From positions 31,684-95,683 of the forward strand of contig JAFQYM010000030.1 in NCBI GenBank assembly GCA_017406465.1: a stretch of DNA of 64,000 nt, given 5' to 3'. The stretch is from Kiritimatiellia bacterium (GTDB lineage: Bacteria > Verrucomicrobiota > Kiritimatiellia > RFP12 > UBA1067). The stretch's first letter is position 1; each line of letters starts with the position of its first letter. Below, one piece after another: positions 21,065 through 34,600 of the stretch. The notes under the pieces are model-generated. The model saw nothing but the letters and a program-made list of their open reading frames with translations, did not search any database and was not told the DNA's origin. A program made the translations under genes and the position numbers.

Positions 21065-22102
21065 ATGAGGGTCTTCGCGCTTCTCTTCCTGGCGTTTTTG
21101 GCGAGTGGCGCATCGGCCATCGACTTTTCCAATCGCTACAGAAGCCCCCGCAACGCCGAGCGGAGAGTGCGAAAGAGCACCGAGCTCATAGTCCTCCACA
21201 CGACCGAGGCGCCGGCCAGAAGCTCGCTCAACAAGCTTTGCGAGCGCGGCGAGGCGCACTACTGCGTGACAGAGGACGGCACGGTCTACCGTATAGTCGA
21301 CCGTGACCGCGTAGCGTTCCACGCGGGCCGCTCGATGTGGAACGGAAAGGAGGACGCAGACGAATTCTCGATAGGCATAGAATGCGTCGGCTATCACGAC
21401 AAGGCGATGGGAATTGTGCAGATCAGGGCGATACGCGATCTCGTCAAGGAGCTGCAGAGGATGTACAGGATTCCCGACGAGCGCGTCGTGTGCCACAGCC
21501 ACGTCGCCTACGGCGCGCCGAACAGGTGGCAGAAGAAGAACCACCGCGGGCGGAAGCGCTGCGGGATGCTCTTCGCAATGCCGTCGGTGCGCGCGCAGCT
21601 CAATCTCGCGAGGCGTCCTGCGAGTGACGCCGACGTGCGCGCGAAGCGGCTCGTCGTGGGAGATGACTACTTGAGGCGAGTCCTCTACGGGAACGTCGAC
21701 ACGATGAAGTCCTCCTACCCGAAGACCCCTTCGCCGTCGCGGGGGCAGGAAGGCGGCGGGCTGCTTGCATGGCTGCGCGGTGATGCGAAGAAGCCAGATA
21801 CGAAAAAGCCCGACGCAGGGAAGACGCAGATATCGGCGAAGGACCCGCCGGAGCAGAAGAAGCTTGTCCCTGCGCCAGTCGCGCCGGTGCCACCGCAAGC
21901 GCCGCCGAAGTCAATAGCCGAGCTCAAGTCCAGGGGCTATGTGTTCAAGGGGTCGGTCACGAAGGGCGTCACTGCGAGCAAAATAGCGGGTGGCCGCTGG
22001 AATTCGAAAGACACTTACTACACCATCCGCAACAAGGTGATACCGGGCGACGCCATCGATCCGGCGCACATCGAGAACGGAATGGGCGTTTGGATGAAGT
22101 GA
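21065..22102 (+). CDS. Secreted N-acetylmuramoyl-L-alanine amidase (Amidase_2) with low-complexity linker and LysM-like C-terminus
   Basis: Signal peptide MRVFALLFLAFLASGASA; VLHTTE, AFHAG, SIGIE, CHSHV...RKRCG. Confidence 0.82.
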   Translation: MRVFALLFLAFLASGASAIDFSNRYRSPRNAERRVRKSTELIVLHTTEAPARSSLNKLCERGEAHYCVTEDGTVYRIVDRDRVAFHAGRSMWNGKEDADEFSIGIECVGYHDKAMGIVQIRAIRDLVKELQRMYRIPDERVVCHSHVAYGAPNRWQKKNHRGRKRCGMLFAMPSVRAQLNLARRPASDADVRAKRLVVGDDYLRRVLYGNVDTMKSSYPKTPSPSRGQEGGGLLAWLRGDAKKPDTKKPDAGKTQISAKDPPEQKKLVPAPVAPVPPQAPPKSIAELKSRGYVFKGSVTKGVTASKIAGGRWNSKDTYYTIRNKVIPGDAIDPAHIENGMGVWMK

Positions 22103-26899: not shown

Positions 26900-27232
26900 A
26901 TGACGCTCAGGCTCAACGGAATAGACGTCGACTGCGTTATCGGGGAACGCCCCGACGAGCGCACCCGGCTTCAGACGCTTCGCGTCGACGTAGAGCTTGA
27001 GATCCCAGACGACGCGGCAGAGACAGATTTGCTCGCCGACACCGTGGACTATGCGGCGCTGACGGAGAGGATCCGCGCCGCGCTTGCGTCTGCGAAGTGC
27101 CGCATGATCGAGCGCGCGGCGAAGATTGTGAAGGACGTCTGTCTCTCCGACGCGAAAGTGCGCGCGGCGAAGGTCTCTATCACGAAATCCGGCGCGGTTC
27201 CGCATCTCGAGTCGGCTCAGGCGGTCCTGTGA
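26900..27232 (+). CDS. folB: Dihydroneopterin aldolase
   Basis: CVIG..P.ER...Q.L.VDVEL, D.LADTVDY, MIE..A, V.ITK. Confidence 0.85.
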   Translation: MTLRLNGIDVDCVIGERPDERTRLQTLRVDVELEIPDDAAETDLLADTVDYAALTERIRAALASAKCRMIERAAKIVKDVCLSDAKVRAAKVSITKSGAVPHLESAQAVL

Positions 27233-27251
27233 ACTTGGCTGGAGGACGACG

Positions 27252-27866
27252 ATGAAGATCAGTGCAGTGGTCTTTGACTTTGGCGGCGTGATGACGACTT
27301 CGACGATGCCGCAGCGCGTGATCGCGCTGGCGAAGGAGAAGGGCATCGACTGGAACGTGTTTGTCGACGGGTTCAACGCGCACCGCCTCGACTACGACGC
27401 CGGGCACATCACGCTTGGCGAGATGTATGCGCTTATCTGGGGCGACGCGGGGCTTTCCGTCCCGGACGAGACGACTGCCGCGTTCATGAAGGCGGACGAC
27501 GAAAGCTGGTGCTACCGCAACGAGAGGACGCTTGAGTGGATGAAGGCGCTTAAAGGGCGCGGCTTCAAGATCGGCATCCTCACGAACATGGCACCCAAGT
27601 TCGCTCGCGAGCATTTCAGGTCACGCTTCGCGGACTTCATCGCGCTTGCCGACGCGATGGTAATCTCGGGCGACGAGGGGATCGTGAAGCCGCAGAGGGA
27701 GATCTACGATCTCCTTCGCTCGCGCATTGGCCTTCCCGCCGAGGAGCTTTGCTTCATCGACGACGTCGAGAAGAACGTCAACGGCTCTCGCGCGGCCGGC
27801 TGGAACGCCATCCGCTTCGCCACAAACGACCAGGTCGAGGCAGACTTCGAAAAGTTCATCCTCTAA
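27252..27866 (+). CDS. HAD-IA family phosphatase (YihX-like)
   Basis: VVFDFGGV, ILTN, SGDEGIVKP..EIY, FIDD...NV. Confidence 0.88.
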   Translation: MKISAVVFDFGGVMTTSTMPQRVIALAKEKGIDWNVFVDGFNAHRLDYDAGHITLGEMYALIWGDAGLSVPDETTAAFMKADDESWCYRNERTLEWMKALKGRGFKIGILTNMAPKFAREHFRSRFADFIALADAMVISGDEGIVKPQREIYDLLRSRIGLPAEELCFIDDVEKNVNGSRAAGWNAIRFATNDQVEADFEKFIL

Positions 27867-27996
27867 TCCCATTCATGCCGTCGTCCCATTGGCGTTAGCT
27901 TTAGGGGCTTGATGGCTTTGCTGTGGTGAACTGCTGTGGACCGACTCCGCGAAAGCCTTGTGTCAAGGTGAAAACGCGCGGAAACGGCGGTGGATA

Positions 27997-28005
27997 TGGT
28001 ATAAT
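27997..28005 (+). promoter_or_regulatory. Extended -10 for the GspG-GH2 fusion gene
   Basis: TGGTATAAT, then SD AGGAGG, then ATG 28031. Confidence 0.65.
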
Positions 28006-28030
28006 ACCTACATCACAAGGAGGAGATTGT

Positions 28031-30922
28031 ATGGTCGACTACAATGCGTTGAAGAAGAAGTTCCCGACGAAGGATCCCCAGAAGAAAAAGAAGGTCGCCG
28101 CCATCAAGGCGATAAAGCGCGAGTATGCCGCGAAGCGCGCGGCGCTCGGCGGCGGCGCGCCGACGATGAAGAAGGGCGTCGTCTTCTACGCCGTCGTCAT
28201 CCTCGGCCTCATGATCCTCGGCTCGCTCATCCTCTCCGTCACCGGGAAGGGCGGCCCCAAGGAGATATCGCGCGCGCAGATCCTCGTCAGGAAATCGGTC
28301 GATTCCGTCGCAGTGGCGCTCGGCCGCTACCGCTACCACGTCGGCAGCTATCCGTCGACGGAGGAGGGCCTTGAGGCGCTCGCGGCAATTACGCCGCGGA
28401 AGAAGGGCTGGAACGGCCCCTACGTCAACCATGTCGTGAAAGACCCGTGGGGGCACGACTACGTGTACGTCAACAACGGCGAGAACGAATATCCGACGCT
28501 CTACTCGAAGGGTCCCGACGGCAAGGCGGGAACGACTGACGACGTTCTTCCCGACCGCGCGCTCTACGACGCTCCTTTCAAGGACACTTCGTGGACGAAG
28601 GGCTGGATGCCGTACTACCTGCGCGGCTACGTTCTCGCTCCCGACAAGCGCACGAAAGGCGCCATCGAAGAGGAGGTCAAGGCCGTGCTCGCGGCAGAGC
28701 AGGGTCCGGCGGAAGGCGAGTTCGTGCTGCACGACGGCTGGGAGTTCTCGCGCGACCAGAAGACGTGGGCCGCCGTTCGCGTGCCGCACGACTGGGCGAT
28801 CGCGGGGCCGTTCGACGAGAAGCTCGACCACGGCACGGGGATGCTCCCCTGGCAGGGCGTCGGATACTACCGCCGCACGATAGAGCTCCCCGCGGACTCC
28901 GCAGGCAAGTTCGTCGCGCTCAGGTTCGGTGGCGTGATGGCGCGCCCGGAGGTGTTCCTGAACGGCGAGAAGGTGGGCAGCTGGGACTATGGCTACATGT
29001 CGTTCGAGGTCGACATCTCGGCAAAGATCAAGTTCGGCGAGAAGAACGAACTTCTCGTGAAGGTTGACACGACTAAGATGAGGAGCCGCTGGTACCCGGG
29101 CGCAGGCATCTACCGCGACGTCAAGCTCGTCGTCGAAGATGCAGAAGACCGCGCGATATGGGGGTCGGTCAAGATCACGACTCCCGAGATAACGCCCGAG
29201 CGCGCGAAAGTGCGCGTCGAATACCTTACGCCAGTGAGCGCGAGCCCGATTGTCAACGAGTTCGAGGTCGAGCGTCCCGTTCTCTGGGATGTCGCGAACC
29301 CGAAGCTCTACGAGACGACGATCTGCGGGAAGAAGTACAAATACGGCATCCGCACCGCCAAGTTCACCGCGAACGACGGCTTCATCCTGAACGGTCGGCG
29401 CGTGCAGCTCAAGGGCGTGAACCTCCATTCCGACCTCGGGCCGCTTGGCATGGCGTTCGACAAGGGCGCGATGCGTCGCCAGCTCGAGGTGATGAAGGAC
29501 ATGGGCGTGAACGCCCTCAGGACGTCGCACAATGCGCCTGCGGAGGAAGTTCTCGACCTCTGCGACGAGATGGGCATCCTCGTGTGGGACGAATGCTTCG
29601 ACAAGTGGGACGGGACTGCAGGCATCACTGAGGGCGACACGCTCGAGGAATATGTCTCGCGCAACCTAAAGCAGTTTGTGCGCCGCGACCGCAACCATCC
29701 ATGCGTCGTGTGCTGGTCGATCGGAAACGAGATCTCGCCGCGTCGCGAGGACTACCCGGCGGGAGTGTACGAGGAGCGCTGCAAGCTCTTCCGTGAAGTC
29801 GTCCTTTCCGAAGACACAACGCGTCCCGTCGGCATCGGCTGCTGCCACACGGAGTCTGCGGGCCGCGGCGATTACGCCGCGCTTGACCTGACCGGGTGGA
29901 ACTACAGCGAGCGCTACATGCCGATGAGGGAGAAGTTCCCGGATAAGCCGATCGTGTACTCCGAGTCGGCATCTGCGTTCTCGAGCTGGGGGTGCTTCCC
30001 TCCGACCCCGTCTGCGAACCCGACGAACTACGATTGGGAGACGGTAGTGGAGATCGACGCCTACGACCGCTGCGCGGCGAAATGGGCGGACATACCCGAC
30101 ATGGAGTTTGCGAGAATGGAACGCGACAAGTTTGTCGCCGGAGAGTTCGTTTGGACCGGCATTGACTACCTTGGCGAGCCTACTCCCGGCTACAAGCGCT
30201 GCCGCAGCTCGTTTTTCGGAATCTGCGACCTCTGCGCGATGCCGAAGGACCGCTACTGGCTCTACCGATCGTACTGGAACGATAGGAAGGACACGGTCCA
30301 TCTCCTGCCGCACTGGAACTGGGATGGTCGCGAAGGCGAGAAGGTCACTGTCGTGTGCTACACGAGCGGCGACGAGGCGGAGCTTTTCGTCAACGGTGAG
30401 AGTGCGGGCCGCAGGAAGAAGGTCAAGGATGCCGGTTCCATTGTCAAAAAGGGCGATCCGAACTACTACAAGGTGACGGAGCGCTATCGCCTCGTCTGGG
30501 AAGTTCCATACGAGCCGGGCGAAATCAAGGTCATAGCGTTTAGGAATGGACGCCCCATCGGCGAGGACTTCCGCAAGACGGCGTACAAGGCGGCGGCGGT
30601 GAAGCTTACGCCAGAGCAGACCGAGCTCGCGGACGGCGAGCTCGGCTTCGTGAAGGTCGAGCTCGAGGATGACGACGGGACGGTCCTGCCTCTCGCGAAG
30701 GACCGCGTGAACTTCAAACTTGAAGGACCCGGCGAGATCGTCGCCGTCGGCAACGGCTCGCACAACGGGCTTGATTCGTTCACGGACACCTCTTCGCATC
30801 CGCTCTACTACGGGCGAGCGCTCGTGATTGTTCGCAGGACCGGCGGCTCGGGTCTTCCGCTCAAGCTCACGGCGTCGGCTCCGTCGGTGAGATCTGCGGT
30901 CGTGACCTTCAGCCGCAAGTAG
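28031..30922 (+). CDS. Fusion: N-terminal TM + GspG-like pseudopilin domain + GH2 beta-galactosidase-type hydrolase
   Basis: ALGRYRYHVGSYPSTEEGLEAL...WNGPY...KDPWG.DY.Y...YSKGPDGKAGTTDD (T2SSG-like). Then VPHDW, FGGV, RWYPGAGIYR, RTSHN, WSIGNE, YSESAS, WTGIDYLGEP. One uninterrupted ORF. Confidence 0.88.
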   Translation: MVDYNALKKKFPTKDPQKKKKVAAIKAIKREYAAKRAALGGGAPTMKKGVVFYAVVILGLMILGSLILSVTGKGGPKEISRAQILVRKSVDSVAVALGRYRYHVGSYPSTEEGLEALAAITPRKKGWNGPYVNHVVKDPWGHDYVYVNNGENEYPTLYSKGPDGKAGTTDDVLPDRALYDAPFKDTSWTKGWMPYYLRGYVLAPDKRTKGAIEEEVKAVLAAEQGPAEGEFVLHDGWEFSRDQKTWAAVRVPHDWAIAGPFDEKLDHGTGMLPWQGVGYYRRTIELPADSAGKFVALRFGGVMARPEVFLNGEKVGSWDYGYMSFEVDISAKIKFGEKNELLVKVDTTKMRSRWYPGAGIYRDVKLVVEDAEDRAIWGSVKITTPEITPERAKVRVEYLTPVSASPIVNEFEVERPVLWDVANPKLYETTICGKKYKYGIRTAKFTANDGFILNGRRVQLKGVNLHSDLGPLGMAFDKGAMRRQLEVMKDMGVNALRTSHNAPAEEVLDLCDEMGILVWDECFDKWDGTAGITEGDTLEEYVSRNLKQFVRRDRNHPCVVCWSIGNEISPRREDYPAGVYEERCKLFREVVLSEDTTRPVGIGCCHTESAGRGDYAALDLTGWNYSERYMPMREKFPDKPIVYSESASAFSSWGCFPPTPSANPTNYDWETVVEIDAYDRCAAKWADIPDMEFARMERDKFVAGEFVWTGIDYLGEPTPGYKRCRSSFFGICDLCAMPKDRYWLYRSYWNDRKDTVHLLPHWNWDGREGEKVTVVCYTSGDEAELFVNGESAGRRKKVKDAGSIVKKGDPNYYKVTERYRLVWEVPYEPGEIKVIAFRNGRPIGEDFRKTAYKAAAVKLTPEQTELADGELGFVKVELEDDDGTVLPLAKDRVNFKLEGPGEIVAVGNGSHNGLDSFTDTSSHPLYYGRALVIVRRTGGSGLPLKLTASAPSVRSAVVTFSRK

Positions 30923-30939: not shown

Positions 30940-30989
30940 ACAAAAAACGCGTTTCTGCATCGTCGCGGGGCGCGTTGGAGCAAGTCGAC

Positions 30990-31907
30990 ATGGAATCGGT
31001 CTTCAGCATGGCGGCGATAACGTTCTGGGCGCTCTGCGCGGCCGGAATAGCGTGGTACGCCTCAGAGGTCGCGAAGGACGTGACCTACGTCACGCTCGCC
31101 GACGGTCGTCGCCAGGAGCGGTCGATACCGATGGTGTTCAAGATGCTTCTTCCTTTCGTGGGGAACCTCGACAGGCTCGTCTCTCGCCCAATGTTCGCAA
31201 AGCAGGTCGAGACGGCTGACTGGATGCTTGTAGCAGCGGGGTTTGAGGGGCTTCTCTCGGGTCGCGAGTTCGTGGCACTCAAGATTCTCTGTCCGATAGT
31301 CCTCGGCGCGGCGTGGACCATTCTAATTGCGCTTCTCGGCGCGGCGCTTCCCGACTCTCCGTTTTCGTCGGGTTTCGTGCCGATATCTCTCCTCGGCATC
31401 GCGCTTTTCTACCTCCAGCCGATGATGTGGCTCAGGGGCGCGCTCAAGAAGCGCCATCTCGCGATAATGAAGGCGCTGCCGTTCGTCCTCGACATCCTCA
31501 CGCTCTCCGTCGAGGCCGGAATGGATTTCATAAGCGCGCTCCAGCGCAACTGCCAGTCGCGCAAGCTCGACGCGCTCAACGAGGAGCTTCTCCGGATGAC
31601 GAAGGAGATTCAGGTCGGCTCGTCCCGCAAGGAGGCGCTCAGGAACATGGCCGAACGCGTCCGCCAGAGCGACTTGAGGTCGGTCGCGTTCGCGCTCATC
31701 CAGGCCGACGAGCTGGGCGTGTCGATAGGCGCGATATTGCGCATACAGTCCGAGCAGCTGCGAAGCCGCCGCTTCGACCGCGCCGAGAAGCTGGCCCACG
31801 AGGCGCCGACGAAGATGCTCGGGCCCCTGATGCTCTGCATTTTCCCCGCAGTGTTCATAATCCTGCTCGGGCCAGTCCTGTCGCAGGCGATGAAGGGGAT
31901 GCTGTAA
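30990..31907 (+). CDS. tadC: TadC-like type II secretion F-family membrane protein
   Basis: LP..LDILTLSVEAG, GSSRKEALRNMAER, LIQADELG.SI...LR.Q, AEKLA..AP.KM..PLMLCIFPA. Confidence 0.88.
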   Translation: MESVFSMAAITFWALCAAGIAWYASEVAKDVTYVTLADGRRQERSIPMVFKMLLPFVGNLDRLVSRPMFAKQVETADWMLVAAGFEGLLSGREFVALKILCPIVLGAAWTILIALLGAALPDSPFSSGFVPISLLGIALFYLQPMMWLRGALKKRHLAIMKALPFVLDILTLSVEAGMDFISALQRNCQSRKLDALNEELLRMTKEIQVGSSRKEALRNMAERVRQSDLRSVAFALIQADELGVSIGAILRIQSEQLRSRRFDRAEKLAHEAPTKMLGPLMLCIFPAVFIILLGPVLSQAMKGML

Positions 31908-31925
31908 AAAGAGGAAAGGCAAGAA

Positions 31926-33302
31926 ATGGCGAAACGTCCAGAACTGCTGATAACGTCAGGGCCCATGGCCGGCACGCGATTCGAGGTCGGCGCCGGCGGC
32001 GTGCGCCTCGGCCGCTCGTCCTCTAACGACGTGTGCATACCCGACGAGGAGCTTTCCCGCAACCACTGCCTCTTCGAGCAGTCTGGCGAAGCGGGCATAC
32101 GCGTGACGGACCTCGCGAGCGCGAACGGCACGTTCGTCAATGGCGAGCAGCTTGGCTCTGATTCATGCGAGCTCAAGGCGGGCGACTCAATCGAGGTCGG
32201 CTCGACTGCGATCAGCGTCATCGGCGAAGAGCCGCCTCCAGCGCAGCACCATGCCACGCCTGTCGCCAGGGGCGCGTCGATAGACCTCGGCCTCGGCACG
32301 ACCCCGGCCGCCGCTTCGCAGGACGTGGCGGCGTCTCGGCCTTCCGCGAGGAAGCCGAGCGGCCATCCTCGCGCGATGCTGGCCAATGTGCTGTGGGTCG
32401 TCGCCGCGCTGATCGTGGCGGCCGCGATAGCCGTCGTCCTCTGCGCGCCGCGCGACTCCGAAAAGCCCGTCATCTCCCCCGTGGCGGACGAGAAGCCCGA
32501 TAAGAAGCTAATCTCGCTTTGCTACGAGAAGGTCGAGGCCGACGTCGCGCGTGTGTTCAGCTACAGGATGGACGTCGACAGCTCCGGCATCCTTCATGTC
32601 GCGTTCGACGACGTGCCCGGCGAGAATCGCCACGTCGACAAGAAGGCCAAGCTCTCGGAAAAGGCGATGAAGAGGATTCTCGAGGTTTTAGACAGGCCCG
32701 GGTTCGCCGCGCTCGACGACGCGTACACGGGTGCCTCCGTCGAGGACGAGAACGAGCTCAAGAGCTTCAGGATCCGCGTCGTCCGCTGGAACAGCATAAA
32801 GGACGTCCTCGTCGAGAACACCCAGGAGCCCGACGCGTTTCGCGAGGTGCGGGAGGCGCTCGAGGCGTTCTCTCGAAACGAACTTGGCATTTGGGCGATA
32901 CAGTACTCTAAGGAAAAGCTGATCGAGCTCAGCGAAGAGAGCGCGAAGGTCGGCGACACCAAGTGGGAGGACCGCGAAGTGGAGTACGGCAACCTCAGCG
33001 CCTCCGTCAAGGCCTACAAGGACGCTCTCTTCTACCTTGAGACTGTAAATCCCAAGCCGGAGAGCTTCGCGACCGTGAAGGAAAGTCTCGCGCGCTCCGA
33101 GGCGGAGCTCAAGCAGCGCTACGAGGACCAGCGCTTCCTCGTCGACAAGGCGATCAACCTCGGCGACTGGGAGGTTGCGCAGTCCGAGCTCAAGATACTG
33201 TGCGAGCTCGTTCCCGAGAGAGACGACCCGCGCCATGCCGAGGCAAACGCGCGTCTCGTCGACGTTGAAAACCGCATGAAGAAGGCGAGGGGTGGAAAAT
33301 GA
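31926..33302 (+). CDS. FHA-domain single-pass membrane protein
   Basis: FHA motifs LGRSS.ND, LSRNH, DLASANGTFVNG; TM segment VLWVVAALIVAAAIAVVL; helical C-terminal ectodomain. Confidence 0.85.
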   Translation: MAKRPELLITSGPMAGTRFEVGAGGVRLGRSSSNDVCIPDEELSRNHCLFEQSGEAGIRVTDLASANGTFVNGEQLGSDSCELKAGDSIEVGSTAISVIGEEPPPAQHHATPVARGASIDLGLGTTPAAASQDVAASRPSARKPSGHPRAMLANVLWVVAALIVAAAIAVVLCAPRDSEKPVISPVADEKPDKKLISLCYEKVEADVARVFSYRMDVDSSGILHVAFDDVPGENRHVDKKAKLSEKAMKRILEVLDRPGFAALDDAYTGASVEDENELKSFRIRVVRWNSIKDVLVENTQEPDAFREVREALEAFSRNELGIWAIQYSKEKLIELSEESAKVGDTKWEDREVEYGNLSASVKAYKDALFYLETVNPKPESFATVKESLARSEAELKQRYEDQRFLVDKAINLGDWEVAQSELKILCELVPERDDPRHAEANARLVDVENRMKKARGGK

Positions 33303-34600
33303 GGGGAATCATTCTTTCGATTGCGCTCGCCGCGCTCACCGCGTTCGCGGACGAGTCGAAGGCGATACGCTGCGACTTCACGAGCCAGCCCGAAGGCGCC
33401 ACCGTGATTGTCGATGGCATGACGCGCGGCGTCACGCCGCTTACGCTCTATGATCTTGCCCCCGGGCCGCGCTACGTCAGGTTCGAGCTGGCAAGCTACG
33501 AAGGCATAGACGAGTTCATGTTCCTCCGCGAAGGCGGGGCCGTAAGCAAGAATGCCGTGCTGAGCCCCGTGAAGGGGATACTGCTCCTTTTGACCGAGCC
33601 AACGGGCTGCGACGTCTCTCTTGACGGCGTTTCGTTCGGCAAGACGCCGCGTCTCATCACGTCTCTCGACGCAAAGGACACGTATCGGCTTCTCGTGCAG
33701 AAGCCCGGCTACCAGCCGCGTACTGTCGAAGTGAAGTTCAACGGGCGTACGCCGCTCGTGAAGAACGAATCCCTCGTCATCGATTCCGGCATTATTGAGG
33801 TGACGAGCGAGCCGGCCGGTGCGGAAGTAACGGTGAACGGGCATCCGCGCGGCAGTACGCCCATGAAGGTCGAGGGTGTTCCCAAGGGGCGCGCGACGGT
33901 CGAGATCAAGAAGAAGGGGTTTGAAGACGAATCGCGCGAGCTTGCGATCGTTGCCGGCGAGAGCCAGACGCTGTTCGTGAAGCTCACCGGGCTTCCGGGC
34001 ACGATGTCGCTCTCGTCCGTTCCCGACGGGGCGAGGTTCTACGTCAACGACAGGCCCGAGGGCAAGGGGCCGATATCGCTTACGGGTCTCAAGCCGGGCT
34101 CCTACACGATCCGCGTCGAGAAGGAAGGCTTTGCCACGGCGACGAAGACCGTCACGCTCGAGAACGGCGGCGTGATCGTCGAGGAGTTTCGGCTTGACAA
34201 CGTTATGGGTCGCATAGAGGTGAGGACGATTCCTTCTGACGTCGAAGTTCTGCTTGACGGCAGCCGCGTCGGCACGACGAAGTCGAAGGGCGACGATGGC
34301 GACGCAAGCGAGGTGTTCGCGATAGAGAACGTGCGCGAGGGCGAGCATACCCTCGTGCTGAAGCGCGAAGGGTACGCGGACGCGACGAAGCACCCAGTCG
34401 TCGAAAACCGCAAGACGCAGACCGTCAACGTCCGGCTCAAGCGTGTCTTCACGCCGAACGTCGAGATCACGACAGACGGCGGCGTGCACCGCGGCGTTTT
34501 GATTTCCAACACGGCGAACGGCGTGGAGGTGGAAGTCTCGCTCGGCATAAACCGCACGTTCCCGCATAACGAGATCAGGAAGATCGAGTTCATCAAGTAG
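33299..34600 (+). CDS. Secreted PEGA-repeat protein
   Basis: Signal peptide; about five repeats of S.P.GA.V.VDG...G.TP...L.PG...V...K.GY. Confidence 0.88.
   Translation: MRGIILSIALAALTAFADESKAIRCDFTSQPEGATVIVDGMTRGVTPLTLYDLAPGPRYVRFELASYEGIDEFMFLREGGAVSKNAVLSPVKGILLLLTEPTGCDVSLDGVSFGKTPRLITSLDAKDTYRLLVQKPGYQPRTVEVKFNGRTPLVKNESLVIDSGIIEVTSEPAGAEVTVNGHPRGSTPMKVEGVPKGRATVEIKKKGFEDESRELAIVAGESQTLFVKLTGLPGTMSLSSVPDGARFYVNDRPEGKGPISLTGLKPGSYTIRVEKEGFATATKTVTLENGGVIVEEFRLDNVMGRIEVRTIPSDVEVLLDGSRVGTTKSKGDDGDASEVFAIENVREGEHTLVLKREGYADATKHPVVENRKTQTVNVRLKRVFTPNVEITTDGGVHRGVLISNTANGVEVEVSLGINRTFPHNEIRKIEFIK

Follow-up and report, generated by a model that had tools for sequence, protein, structure and literature searches.

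A pseudopilin-like module fused to a GH2 beta-galactosidase in Kiritimatiellia: a probable uncleaved membrane anchor

Is a glycoside hydrolase with a pilin-like domain at its N-terminus displayed on a pilus, or does the pilin fold serve here as something else? We addressed this question for a gene at positions 28031-30922 of a 64,000-nucleotide stretch from a Kiritimatiellia bacterium (assembly GCA_017406465.1, contig JAFQYM010000030.1, positions 31,684 to 95,683 of the forward strand), which we call the window. An earlier reading of the same DNA, the original prediction, described one open reading frame with a Lys-rich N-terminus, a hydrophobic helix, a GspG-like domain, a linker and a glycoside hydrolase of family 2 (GH2), all of which we recovered. 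It left two interpretations side by side: a carbohydrate-active enzyme that docks on a pseudopilus or Tad apparatus or is exported together with it, and a pilin domain that has been turned into a membrane stalk. Our analysis favors the second. The protein is probably a bitopic inner-membrane protein and not a pilus subunit, in which a pseudopilin-derived, uncleaved anchor would tether an exo-beta-galactosidase at the periplasmic face.

Architecture of the fusion protein

All features given below lie on the + strand of the window, where a single open frame spans 27923-30922 and the gene starts at ATG 28031 (coding sequence 28031-30922). This start is supported by the Shine-Dalgarno sequence AGGAGG (28018-28023), which is located 7 nucleotides before the ATG, and by the N-terminus MVDYxxLKKKFP, which homologues of the fusion protein share. 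An internal start at Met46 (MKKG...), which would create an ordinary signal peptide, is ruled out, since Met46 is replaced by L, F or V in close relatives, while the preceding 45 amino acids (aa) are conserved.

The fusion gene is real and recurrent in gut- and sediment-type Kiritimatiellae bacteria. With aa 1-235 as the query, and restricting the search to long proteins clustered at 90% identity, we found the combination of a T2SSG and a GH2 domain in 87 protein clusters from ENA, JGI, NCBI and Logan assemblies, the named members of which are metagenome-assembled genomes of Kiritimatiellae. The full-length fusion is present in at least nine species-representative genomes of the window's genus (G452, G457, G425, G380, G444, G426, G454, G395 and G492), so the architecture is not unique to the window's assembly. 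An assembly chimera, or two genes joined by a frame shift, is excluded for all practical purposes because the same architecture recurs in these clusters and genomes and because the junction sequence is conserved.

The resemblance of the N-terminal part to the major pseudopilin GspG was upheld at three levels: Pfam, Protein Data Bank (PDB) sequences, and comparison of the AlphaFold2 (AF2) fold with GspG structures. The GspG-fold globular domain comprises aa 81-172 (28271-28546), in agreement with the block at about 28270-28545 that had been proposed before, and is delimited by Pfam, PDB sequence and Foldseek matches and by invariant columns. Pfam T2SSG (PF08334) matches aa 87-170 with an E-value of 4.6e-22 and 78.6 bits (gathering cut-off 21). 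A phmmer search against PDB sequences retrieved 2KEP, 5WDA, 3G20 and 1T92 (GspG/PulG/XcpT) with E-values of 6e-13 to 2e-9, and the 5WDA alignment covers the protein from aa 55, within the hydrophobic helix, to aa 172. The AF2 model of aa 1-230 places the pilin helix alpha1C at 81-104, followed by strands, and thus has the pilin fold; in Foldseek it matched 16 GspG/PulG/EpsG/XcpT chains, each with a probability of 1.00 and 15 of them with E <= 0.001, and no significant match other than major pseudopilins was obtained with this model. The GspG hallmark motifs LGRYRYHVGxYP, GWNGPY, DPWG and GPDGxxGTxDD are retained. The GspG equivalog TIGR01710 was not reached (72.2 bits versus a cut-off of 88.85), its match beginning at position 12 of the hidden Markov model (HMM); this alignment and that of 5WDA both pass through aa 55-80.

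Two elements frame the globular domain. A Gly-rich hinge, TGKGGPKEIS (28241-28270), in which G74 and G75 are conserved, precedes it and is modeled with low confidence. A family-specific extension, aa 173-228 (28547-28714), follows it and contains the invariant aromatic motif F183-D185-W188-W192-P194-R198 and a linker helix (206-223) that runs unbroken into the GH2 part in the AF2 model. Stand-alone relatives stop at about aa 219 of the window protein (...EEMKxYD), which places the fusion junction within this extension.

The enzyme itself is a five-domain module with the architecture of GH2 exo-beta-galactosidases (aa 229-963, 28715-30919), as judged from Pfam, NCBIfam, the AF2 model and structural matches. 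It consists of GH2_N (aa 242-367, 28754-29131; PF02837), an Ig-like domain with a weak match to PF00703, the TIM barrel (29375-30310; PF02836 matching aa 449-601), DUF4982 (aa 769-843, 30335-30559; PF16355) and GH2_C5 (aa 858-959, 30602-30907; PF18565). The AF2 model of the full-length protein has a pLDDT of 88 and a pTM of 0.84. The original prediction of a complete GH2 enzyme with both catalytic Glu motifs held: Glu567 in WSIGNE (codon 29729-29731), the predicted acid/base, and Glu645 in YSES (codon 29963-29965), the predicted nucleophile, align with the catalytic residues of the lambda-carrageenan-active GH2A (9BEY). Domain set and catalytic residues are those of a GH2 beta-galactosidase, and such an activity is predicted. 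We left the specificity unassigned because the NCBIfam GalB equivalog reached 671 bits, under its cut-off of 900.

Best structural matches of the GH2 part are 9BEY, with a TM score of 0.83, and BuGH2A (5T98/5T99), with scores in the range of 0.83-0.85 (0.84 for 5T99). More broadly, the GH2 exo-beta-galactosidases BuGH2A, the lambda-carrageenan GH2A, BgaA and BgaD (5T98, 9BEY, 4CU6, 4YPJ) have the same five domains, TM scores of 0.8-0.85 and 30-35% identity, and share the acid/base and nucleophile Glu with the window protein. The difference lies at the N-terminus: these enzymes carry signal peptides, lipoprotein signals or cell-wall anchors, whereas the window protein has a 228-aa pseudopilin-derived membrane module.

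The N-terminal tail, the helix and the class III signal

The class III signal of pilins and pseudopilins (PF07963, IPR012902) consists of a short basic leader, Gly at position -1, a hydrophobic residue at +1 and Glu at +5. The fusion protein has the pilin fold and lacks this signal. PF07963 (N_methyl) gave no match in aa 1-235 even at E <= 10, and TIGR02532 gave none in the fusion protein; the genome's own GspG (C94:47023-47454, MRAG|FTLIEIL), which served as a positive control in the same Pfam search, reached 30.3 bits at an N_methyl cut-off of 21.2. The absence of Glu5, already noticed in the original prediction, extends from the window protein to its relatives, as none of the 88 sequences (the window protein and 87 relatives) has an acidic residue at +5 after G49. 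When the protein is aligned to the PulG HMM, the Glu5 position falls on Phe52 and Gly49 is not aligned with Gly-1. Deeper orthologues carry N, S or A before the helix, followed by P (RNPKFYF, HSPKVLL), and the wider family thus has no conserved cleavage Gly. A conserved GKGG hinge follows the helix and interrupts alpha1.

What precedes the helix in the window protein looks like a domain in its own right. The putative cytoplasmic tail, aa 1-49 (28031-28177), with the motif KKF...AIKAIxREYExK[KR]AEL and a predicted helix at 16-38, contains 15 K/R and 3 D/E. Eight of its residues (K10, F11, I28, R30, E31, Y32, K35 and A37) are nearly invariant in fused and stand-alone forms, and a pre-helix region of 45-55 aa, [KR][KR]Ixx Ix R[ED]xEx[KR][KR]AEL, which is predicted to be helical, is conserved throughout the family, this conservation extending over hundreds of homologues. 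Stand-alone orthologues in three loci (L010, L011 and L012 of genomes G234, G276 and G011) carry an additional zinc ribbon, CxxC...CxxC, before the tail (YRCPYCK...HCPKCGKIM). An anti-sigma-like ZAS domain in the tail is unsupported, with just a weak Zn_ribbon_3 match in some orthologues. The tail is followed by a single transmembrane helix, aa 50-70 (28178-28240; 50-70/72 in the AF2 model), which is homologous to the pseudopilin helix alpha1N and does not have the G|FxxxE motif. Because of the near-invariant residues, the added zinc ribbon, the lack of a conserved Gly and the positive-inside charge, tail and helix most likely represent a retained cytoplasmic domain plus signal anchor and not a discarded leader.

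LptF/G, LpxA and TonB-receptor genes are present in syntenic loci, which implies a diderm envelope. From these sequence features we infer the following topology for the fusion protein: the Lys/Arg-rich 49-aa N-terminus would remain cytoplasmic, and helix 50-70 would act as an uncleaved signal anchor in N-in/C-out orientation. The Gly-rich hinge, the GspG-fold domain, the aromatic motif and the 18-residue helix (206-223) would together form a periplasmic stalk, which positions the predicted-active GH2 enzyme with Glu567 and Glu645 on the inner membrane's outer face. Located near sugar transporters, the enzyme could there trim terminal beta-galactose from imported oligosaccharides, while the N-terminal module would retain an older function of its own besides carrying GH2. 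Such an arrangement suggests a way in which these polysaccharide specialists may position an exo-galactosidase in the periplasm, on its inner-membrane side.

The protein thus stands apart from the pseudopilins it resembles. With GspG/PulG/EpsG/XcpT (PF08334; 3G20, 4LW9, 5WDA, 2KEP, 1T92) it shares the globular fold, the hallmark motifs and a homology that reaches into alpha1N. Unlike GspG, it has neither the G|FxxxE signal nor the N_methyl motif, its family has a conserved tail of 45-55 aa in place of the GspG leader of 6-8 aa, and it adds the Gly-rich hinge after the transmembrane helix and the C-terminal aromatic motif and helix. Its TIGR01710 score remains under the cut-off, and its gene lies away from the gspG-K operon, which the same genome holds separately. 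The fusion protein could be a clear case of a pilin fold that is reused as a membrane anchor or stalk.

A comparable solution is known from the archaellum, where ArlF and ArlG (FlaF/FlaG) resemble filament subunits, keep an uncleaved N-terminal membrane helix, remain in the membrane and do not polymerise. ArlF and ArlG belong to another fold family and another domain of life, are encoded in the operon of their machine and carry no fused enzyme. The two cases may be viewed as the same kind of exaptation, by analogy and in principle only.

An old single-copy family and a labile enzyme

The pseudopilin-like part appears to be the old, conserved core of this protein, and GH2 a labile add-on, an aspect that the original prediction had missed. 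Within the family, 203 of the 221 species have exactly one copy of the N-terminal module (N-module; query aa 1-235), as do 113 of the 116 species in the window's genus, and alignments that include the cytoplasmic tail extend to many other families of the class. Most N-module genes in species genomes encode proteins of about 200-270 aa. Stand-alone N-modules of 220-240 aa form 430 clusters, which are annotated as 'type II secretion system protein GspG'. In the family alignment, the N-terminal 220 aa are best conserved in distant members and the GH2 part is very variable; the fused family has 37 invariant columns, and 26 of them fall within aa 53-198. Stand-alone genes are located directly downstream of thymidine phosphorylase, in the same slot as the fused genes in L001, L002, L005 and L030, which makes stand-alone and fused genes positional orthologues. 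Together, these observations point to the N-terminal ~220 aa as an older, class-wide single-copy protein derived from the major pseudopilin GspG. The family, labeled as a type II secretion system (T2SS) protein across a whole class, lacks the signal of pilins and probably does not contribute subunits to a filament.

In the literature, we found no paper on this family, on pseudopilins in Kiritimatiellae or on a pseudopilin-glycoside hydrolase fusion. The earlier statement that no example has been described is therefore correct for the searchable literature, but not for the databases, where hundreds of members are listed under the name GspG or beta-galactosidase.

How the enzyme was acquired can be read from a tree of the N-module. 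Stand-alone forms of other genera are basal, with a support of 0.987 on the node that joins them with the fused clade, and all GH2-bearing forms belong to one clade. Stand-alone forms of the window's own genus are nested inside this fused clade (0.98) and are thus ruled out as the ancestral state; stub forms, in which either DUF4982 and C5 (about 454 aa) or C5 alone (379 aa) are left, are nested there as well. The tree suggests a single fusion of GH2, at the root of the window's genus, after which GH2 was kept, gutted in frame, trimmed to stubs or lost.

Gutted forms are frequent. N566-E567 and E645 are retained in 34 of 88 forms (934-997 aa), while the catalytic residues are missing in the other 54 (578-798 aa). 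In all of these dead forms, roughly aa 531-730 are gone, which make up the barrel's catalytic half; the boundaries vary. Active and dead forms are interleaved in the fused clade, in sister pairs with supports of 0.92-0.985, and each dead remnant is nearer to its active neighbors than to other dead forms. As boundaries differ and remnants are closest to active neighbors, the dead forms appear to result from independent in-frame decays, and the idea that recombination moved around one ancient dead cassette is ruled out. One copy per genome identifies active and dead forms as orthologues and rules out paralogues within one genome. Recent gene conversion from a paralogous GH2 is likewise ruled out, the closest GH2 paralogue in the genome (C87) being 45% identical. 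A telling example is P0007, a dead form of 747 aa, whose N-module is 97% identical to that of the window protein and whose gene is found at the same locus, with T2SSF-FHA-PEGA-TlyA downstream; P0008 (777 aa) represents an intermediate form. This dense series within one genus, in which an enzyme was apparently fused once and is now found as an active form, an in-frame pseudoenzyme or a stub, or has been lost, could be useful for studying the evolution of fusions and pseudoenzymes.

Competing explanations and the genomic neighborhood

Several observations weigh against an uncleaved anchor. Gly49 is nearly invariant in the genus and its nearest relatives, where it follows two basic residues and precedes the hydrophobic helix, and some deep members read RRG|FPYYM, which resembles a prepilin site. 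Pseudopilins without Glu5 exist, as exemplified by GspK, and the genome encodes two prepilin peptidases. In addition, a plain anchor leaves unexplained the genus-wide linkage of the gene to an orphan T2SSF-FHA-PEGA cluster, which hints at a type IV filament-like machine, and assigns no role to the invariant aromatic motif at 183-199.

The last two points lead to an alternative that we consider unlikely: the N-module could be a machine component, a membrane-locked pseudopilin mimic that docks in the T2SS or in the orphan T2SSF-FHA-PEGA platform and thereby stations GH2 there. Locked in the membrane beyond extraction, it might serve the machine as an anchor, a primer or a terminator, in analogy to the uncleaved, archaellin-like ArlF and ArlG. 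The GspG homology of transmembrane helix and globular domain over aa 55-172, with fold motifs including the DGxxGTxDD loop kept, would fit such a role, as would the single-copy core nature of the family. Both the aromatic motif, invariant and of surface type, and the conserved helix in the cytoplasmic part resemble partner-binding elements.

The genomic evidence for a machine component is divided. Downstream of the fusion gene, 30975-34600 contain the genes for an orphan single-domain T2SSF protein (TadC-like), an FHA protein with a transmembrane segment and a PEGA protein, and no terminator-like site was found between the fusion gene and this set. The same set is located beside or near the orthologue in L003, L004, L005, L019, L025 and L030, and in this genus only. 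The common order in the genus (L005, L019, L025, L030) is T2SSF-FHA-PEGA-TlyA-thymidine phosphorylase-N-module, with or without GH2, and the order in the window's clade is permuted to fusion gene-T2SSF-FHA-PEGA-TlyA, so the linkage to T2SSF survives a rearrangement within the genus. However, it takes in TlyA and thymidine phosphorylase and may be plain synteny. Outside the genus, orthologues have housekeeping neighbors (thymidine phosphorylase, HisI, RuvB, AspRS/NusA), T2SS and type IV pilus genes are absent from their surroundings, and relatives own two-domain GspF/PilC platforms elsewhere. Given these housekeeping neighbors and separate GspF/PilC genes, the linkage is a weak sign of a functional tie. 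Equally improbable in our view is a broader proposal, in which the N-module would be a core component of the Kiritimatiellia envelope that has gone unrecognised: a pseudopilin no longer able to leave the membrane, with its GspG-like helix and head directed to a type IV filament-type platform (the T2SS or the orphan T2SSF-FHA-PEGA set) and its conserved basic helix to a cytoplasmic partner, and turned by one genus into a glycosidase scaffold at that machine. If the module were indeed a machine component, hundreds of 'GspG' entries in databases would represent a different protein with a different job.

We judge it clearly improbable that the protein is a true modular pseudopilin, which a prepilin peptidase cuts after Gly49 and which, as a GspK-like first-loaded subunit, would put GH2 at the tip of a T2SS pseudopilus or a Tad pilus. 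The [KR][KR]G motif before the hydrophobic helix speaks for it, and the genome provides what would be required: prepilin peptidases, GspE, a Tad locus and, on a separate contig (C94), a canonical gspG-H-I-J-K-like pseudopilin operon. There is also precedent for the design. Modular type IV pilins, such as PilB and PilC of S. sanguinis, CofB of enterotoxigenic Escherichia coli (ETEC) and ComZ of Thermus, occur widely and number over 1,200 proteins, which display 264 architectures (Raynaud et al. 2021, PMC8179133). They are defined by an N-terminal IPR012902 module and an extra functional module with no specific tie to pilus biology; their extra modules include carbohydrate-related and enzymatic ones, and the main text mentions no GH2 module and neither 'glycoside' nor 'hydrolase' (PMC8179133). 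Modular pilins and the window protein have the same design, a small pilin-fold module, a short linker and a bulky functional module at the C-terminus. Yet modular pilins polymerise into filaments, whereas the window protein is without the IPR012902 motif and most likely retained in the membrane.

The evidence from the N-terminus speaks against such a pseudopilin at several points: the N_methyl/IPR012902 signature is missing although the positive control was detected, the supposed leader of 45-55 aa is conserved and gains a zinc ribbon in some orthologues, the Gly is not kept by deeper members of the family, where Pro often comes next, the PulG alignment puts Glu5 at Phe52 and leaves Gly49 off Gly-1, and alpha1 is interrupted by the Gly-rich hinge. 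Moreover, the gene lies outside pilin operons, as no pseudopilin or T2SS operon surrounds the fusion gene or its orthologues in about 25 loci, and only the appendage, not the N-module, can be dispensed with. With signal, Glu5, conserved Gly and pilin operon all missing and the tail conserved, the original prediction's first interpretation, in which a pseudopilus or Tad apparatus carries or exports the enzyme, did not hold, and this protein does not supply an 'enzyme on a pilus'. Its second interpretation, the membrane stalk, fits the evidence for an uncleaved anchor.

Very improbable, finally, is a long Sec signal that signal peptidase I cuts near SVTG|KGG, freeing a soluble, periplasmic and possibly T2SS-exported GspG-like-GH2 protein: small residues do follow the helix (VTG in the window protein, AAG|KGG in L008/L009), but there is no consistent AXA-type site across the family (FKRGG, TATDK, INKVS, AFNRP), and a discarded n-region would not need a conserved cytoplasmic sequence.

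Some further observations concern the secretion and pilus genes of the genus. Throughout the genus the orphan T2SSF-FHA-PEGA cluster is conserved, with tlyA always next to it downstream; it includes neither an ATPase gene nor a pilin gene of its own. In the window's genome (G000, 83% complete), only three T2SSF-domain matches and no two-domain GspF/PilC gene were found, which may reflect assembly gaps or a real loss; G395 and G407 of the same genus each have eight T2SSF matches, including three two-domain GspF/PilC genes. Since relatives carry these three genes elsewhere, the orphan T2SSF is unlikely to be a missing T2SS platform. GspE is encoded on C43 (56124-57812), where the next gene is rpoN-like and not gspF. 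A complete Tad locus is located on C88, with a TadV-like gene at 21826, two T2SSF genes at 26911 and 27901 and a TadA-like gene at 28714.

Upstream of the fusion gene, synteny ends exactly at the gene itself (L003 5797-7947 versus window 26900-27866). The L003 orthologue, which is 97% identical, is preceded by a TonB-dependent receptor gene, and the window gene by FolB and a HAD hydrolase, which indicates a recent rearrangement just upstream of the fusion gene. A weak terminator-like hairpin (27879-27894) lies 3' of the HAD gene. The sequence TGGTATAAT (27997-28005), a perfect extended -10-like element 25 nucleotides 5' of the start codon, is a possible promoter as read from the sequence; a consensus promoter scan upstream of the fusion gene found no -35/-10 pair, and we regard the element as a lead only. 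Together with the hairpin, it suggests that the fusion gene begins its own transcription unit. In a distant relative (L002, 11178-17842), genes for a C10 peptidase, a GH36 alpha-galactosidase, a sulfatase and a GH20 enzyme are located a few genes downstream of a dead-GH2 orthologue, in what looks like a glycan-degradation neighborhood.

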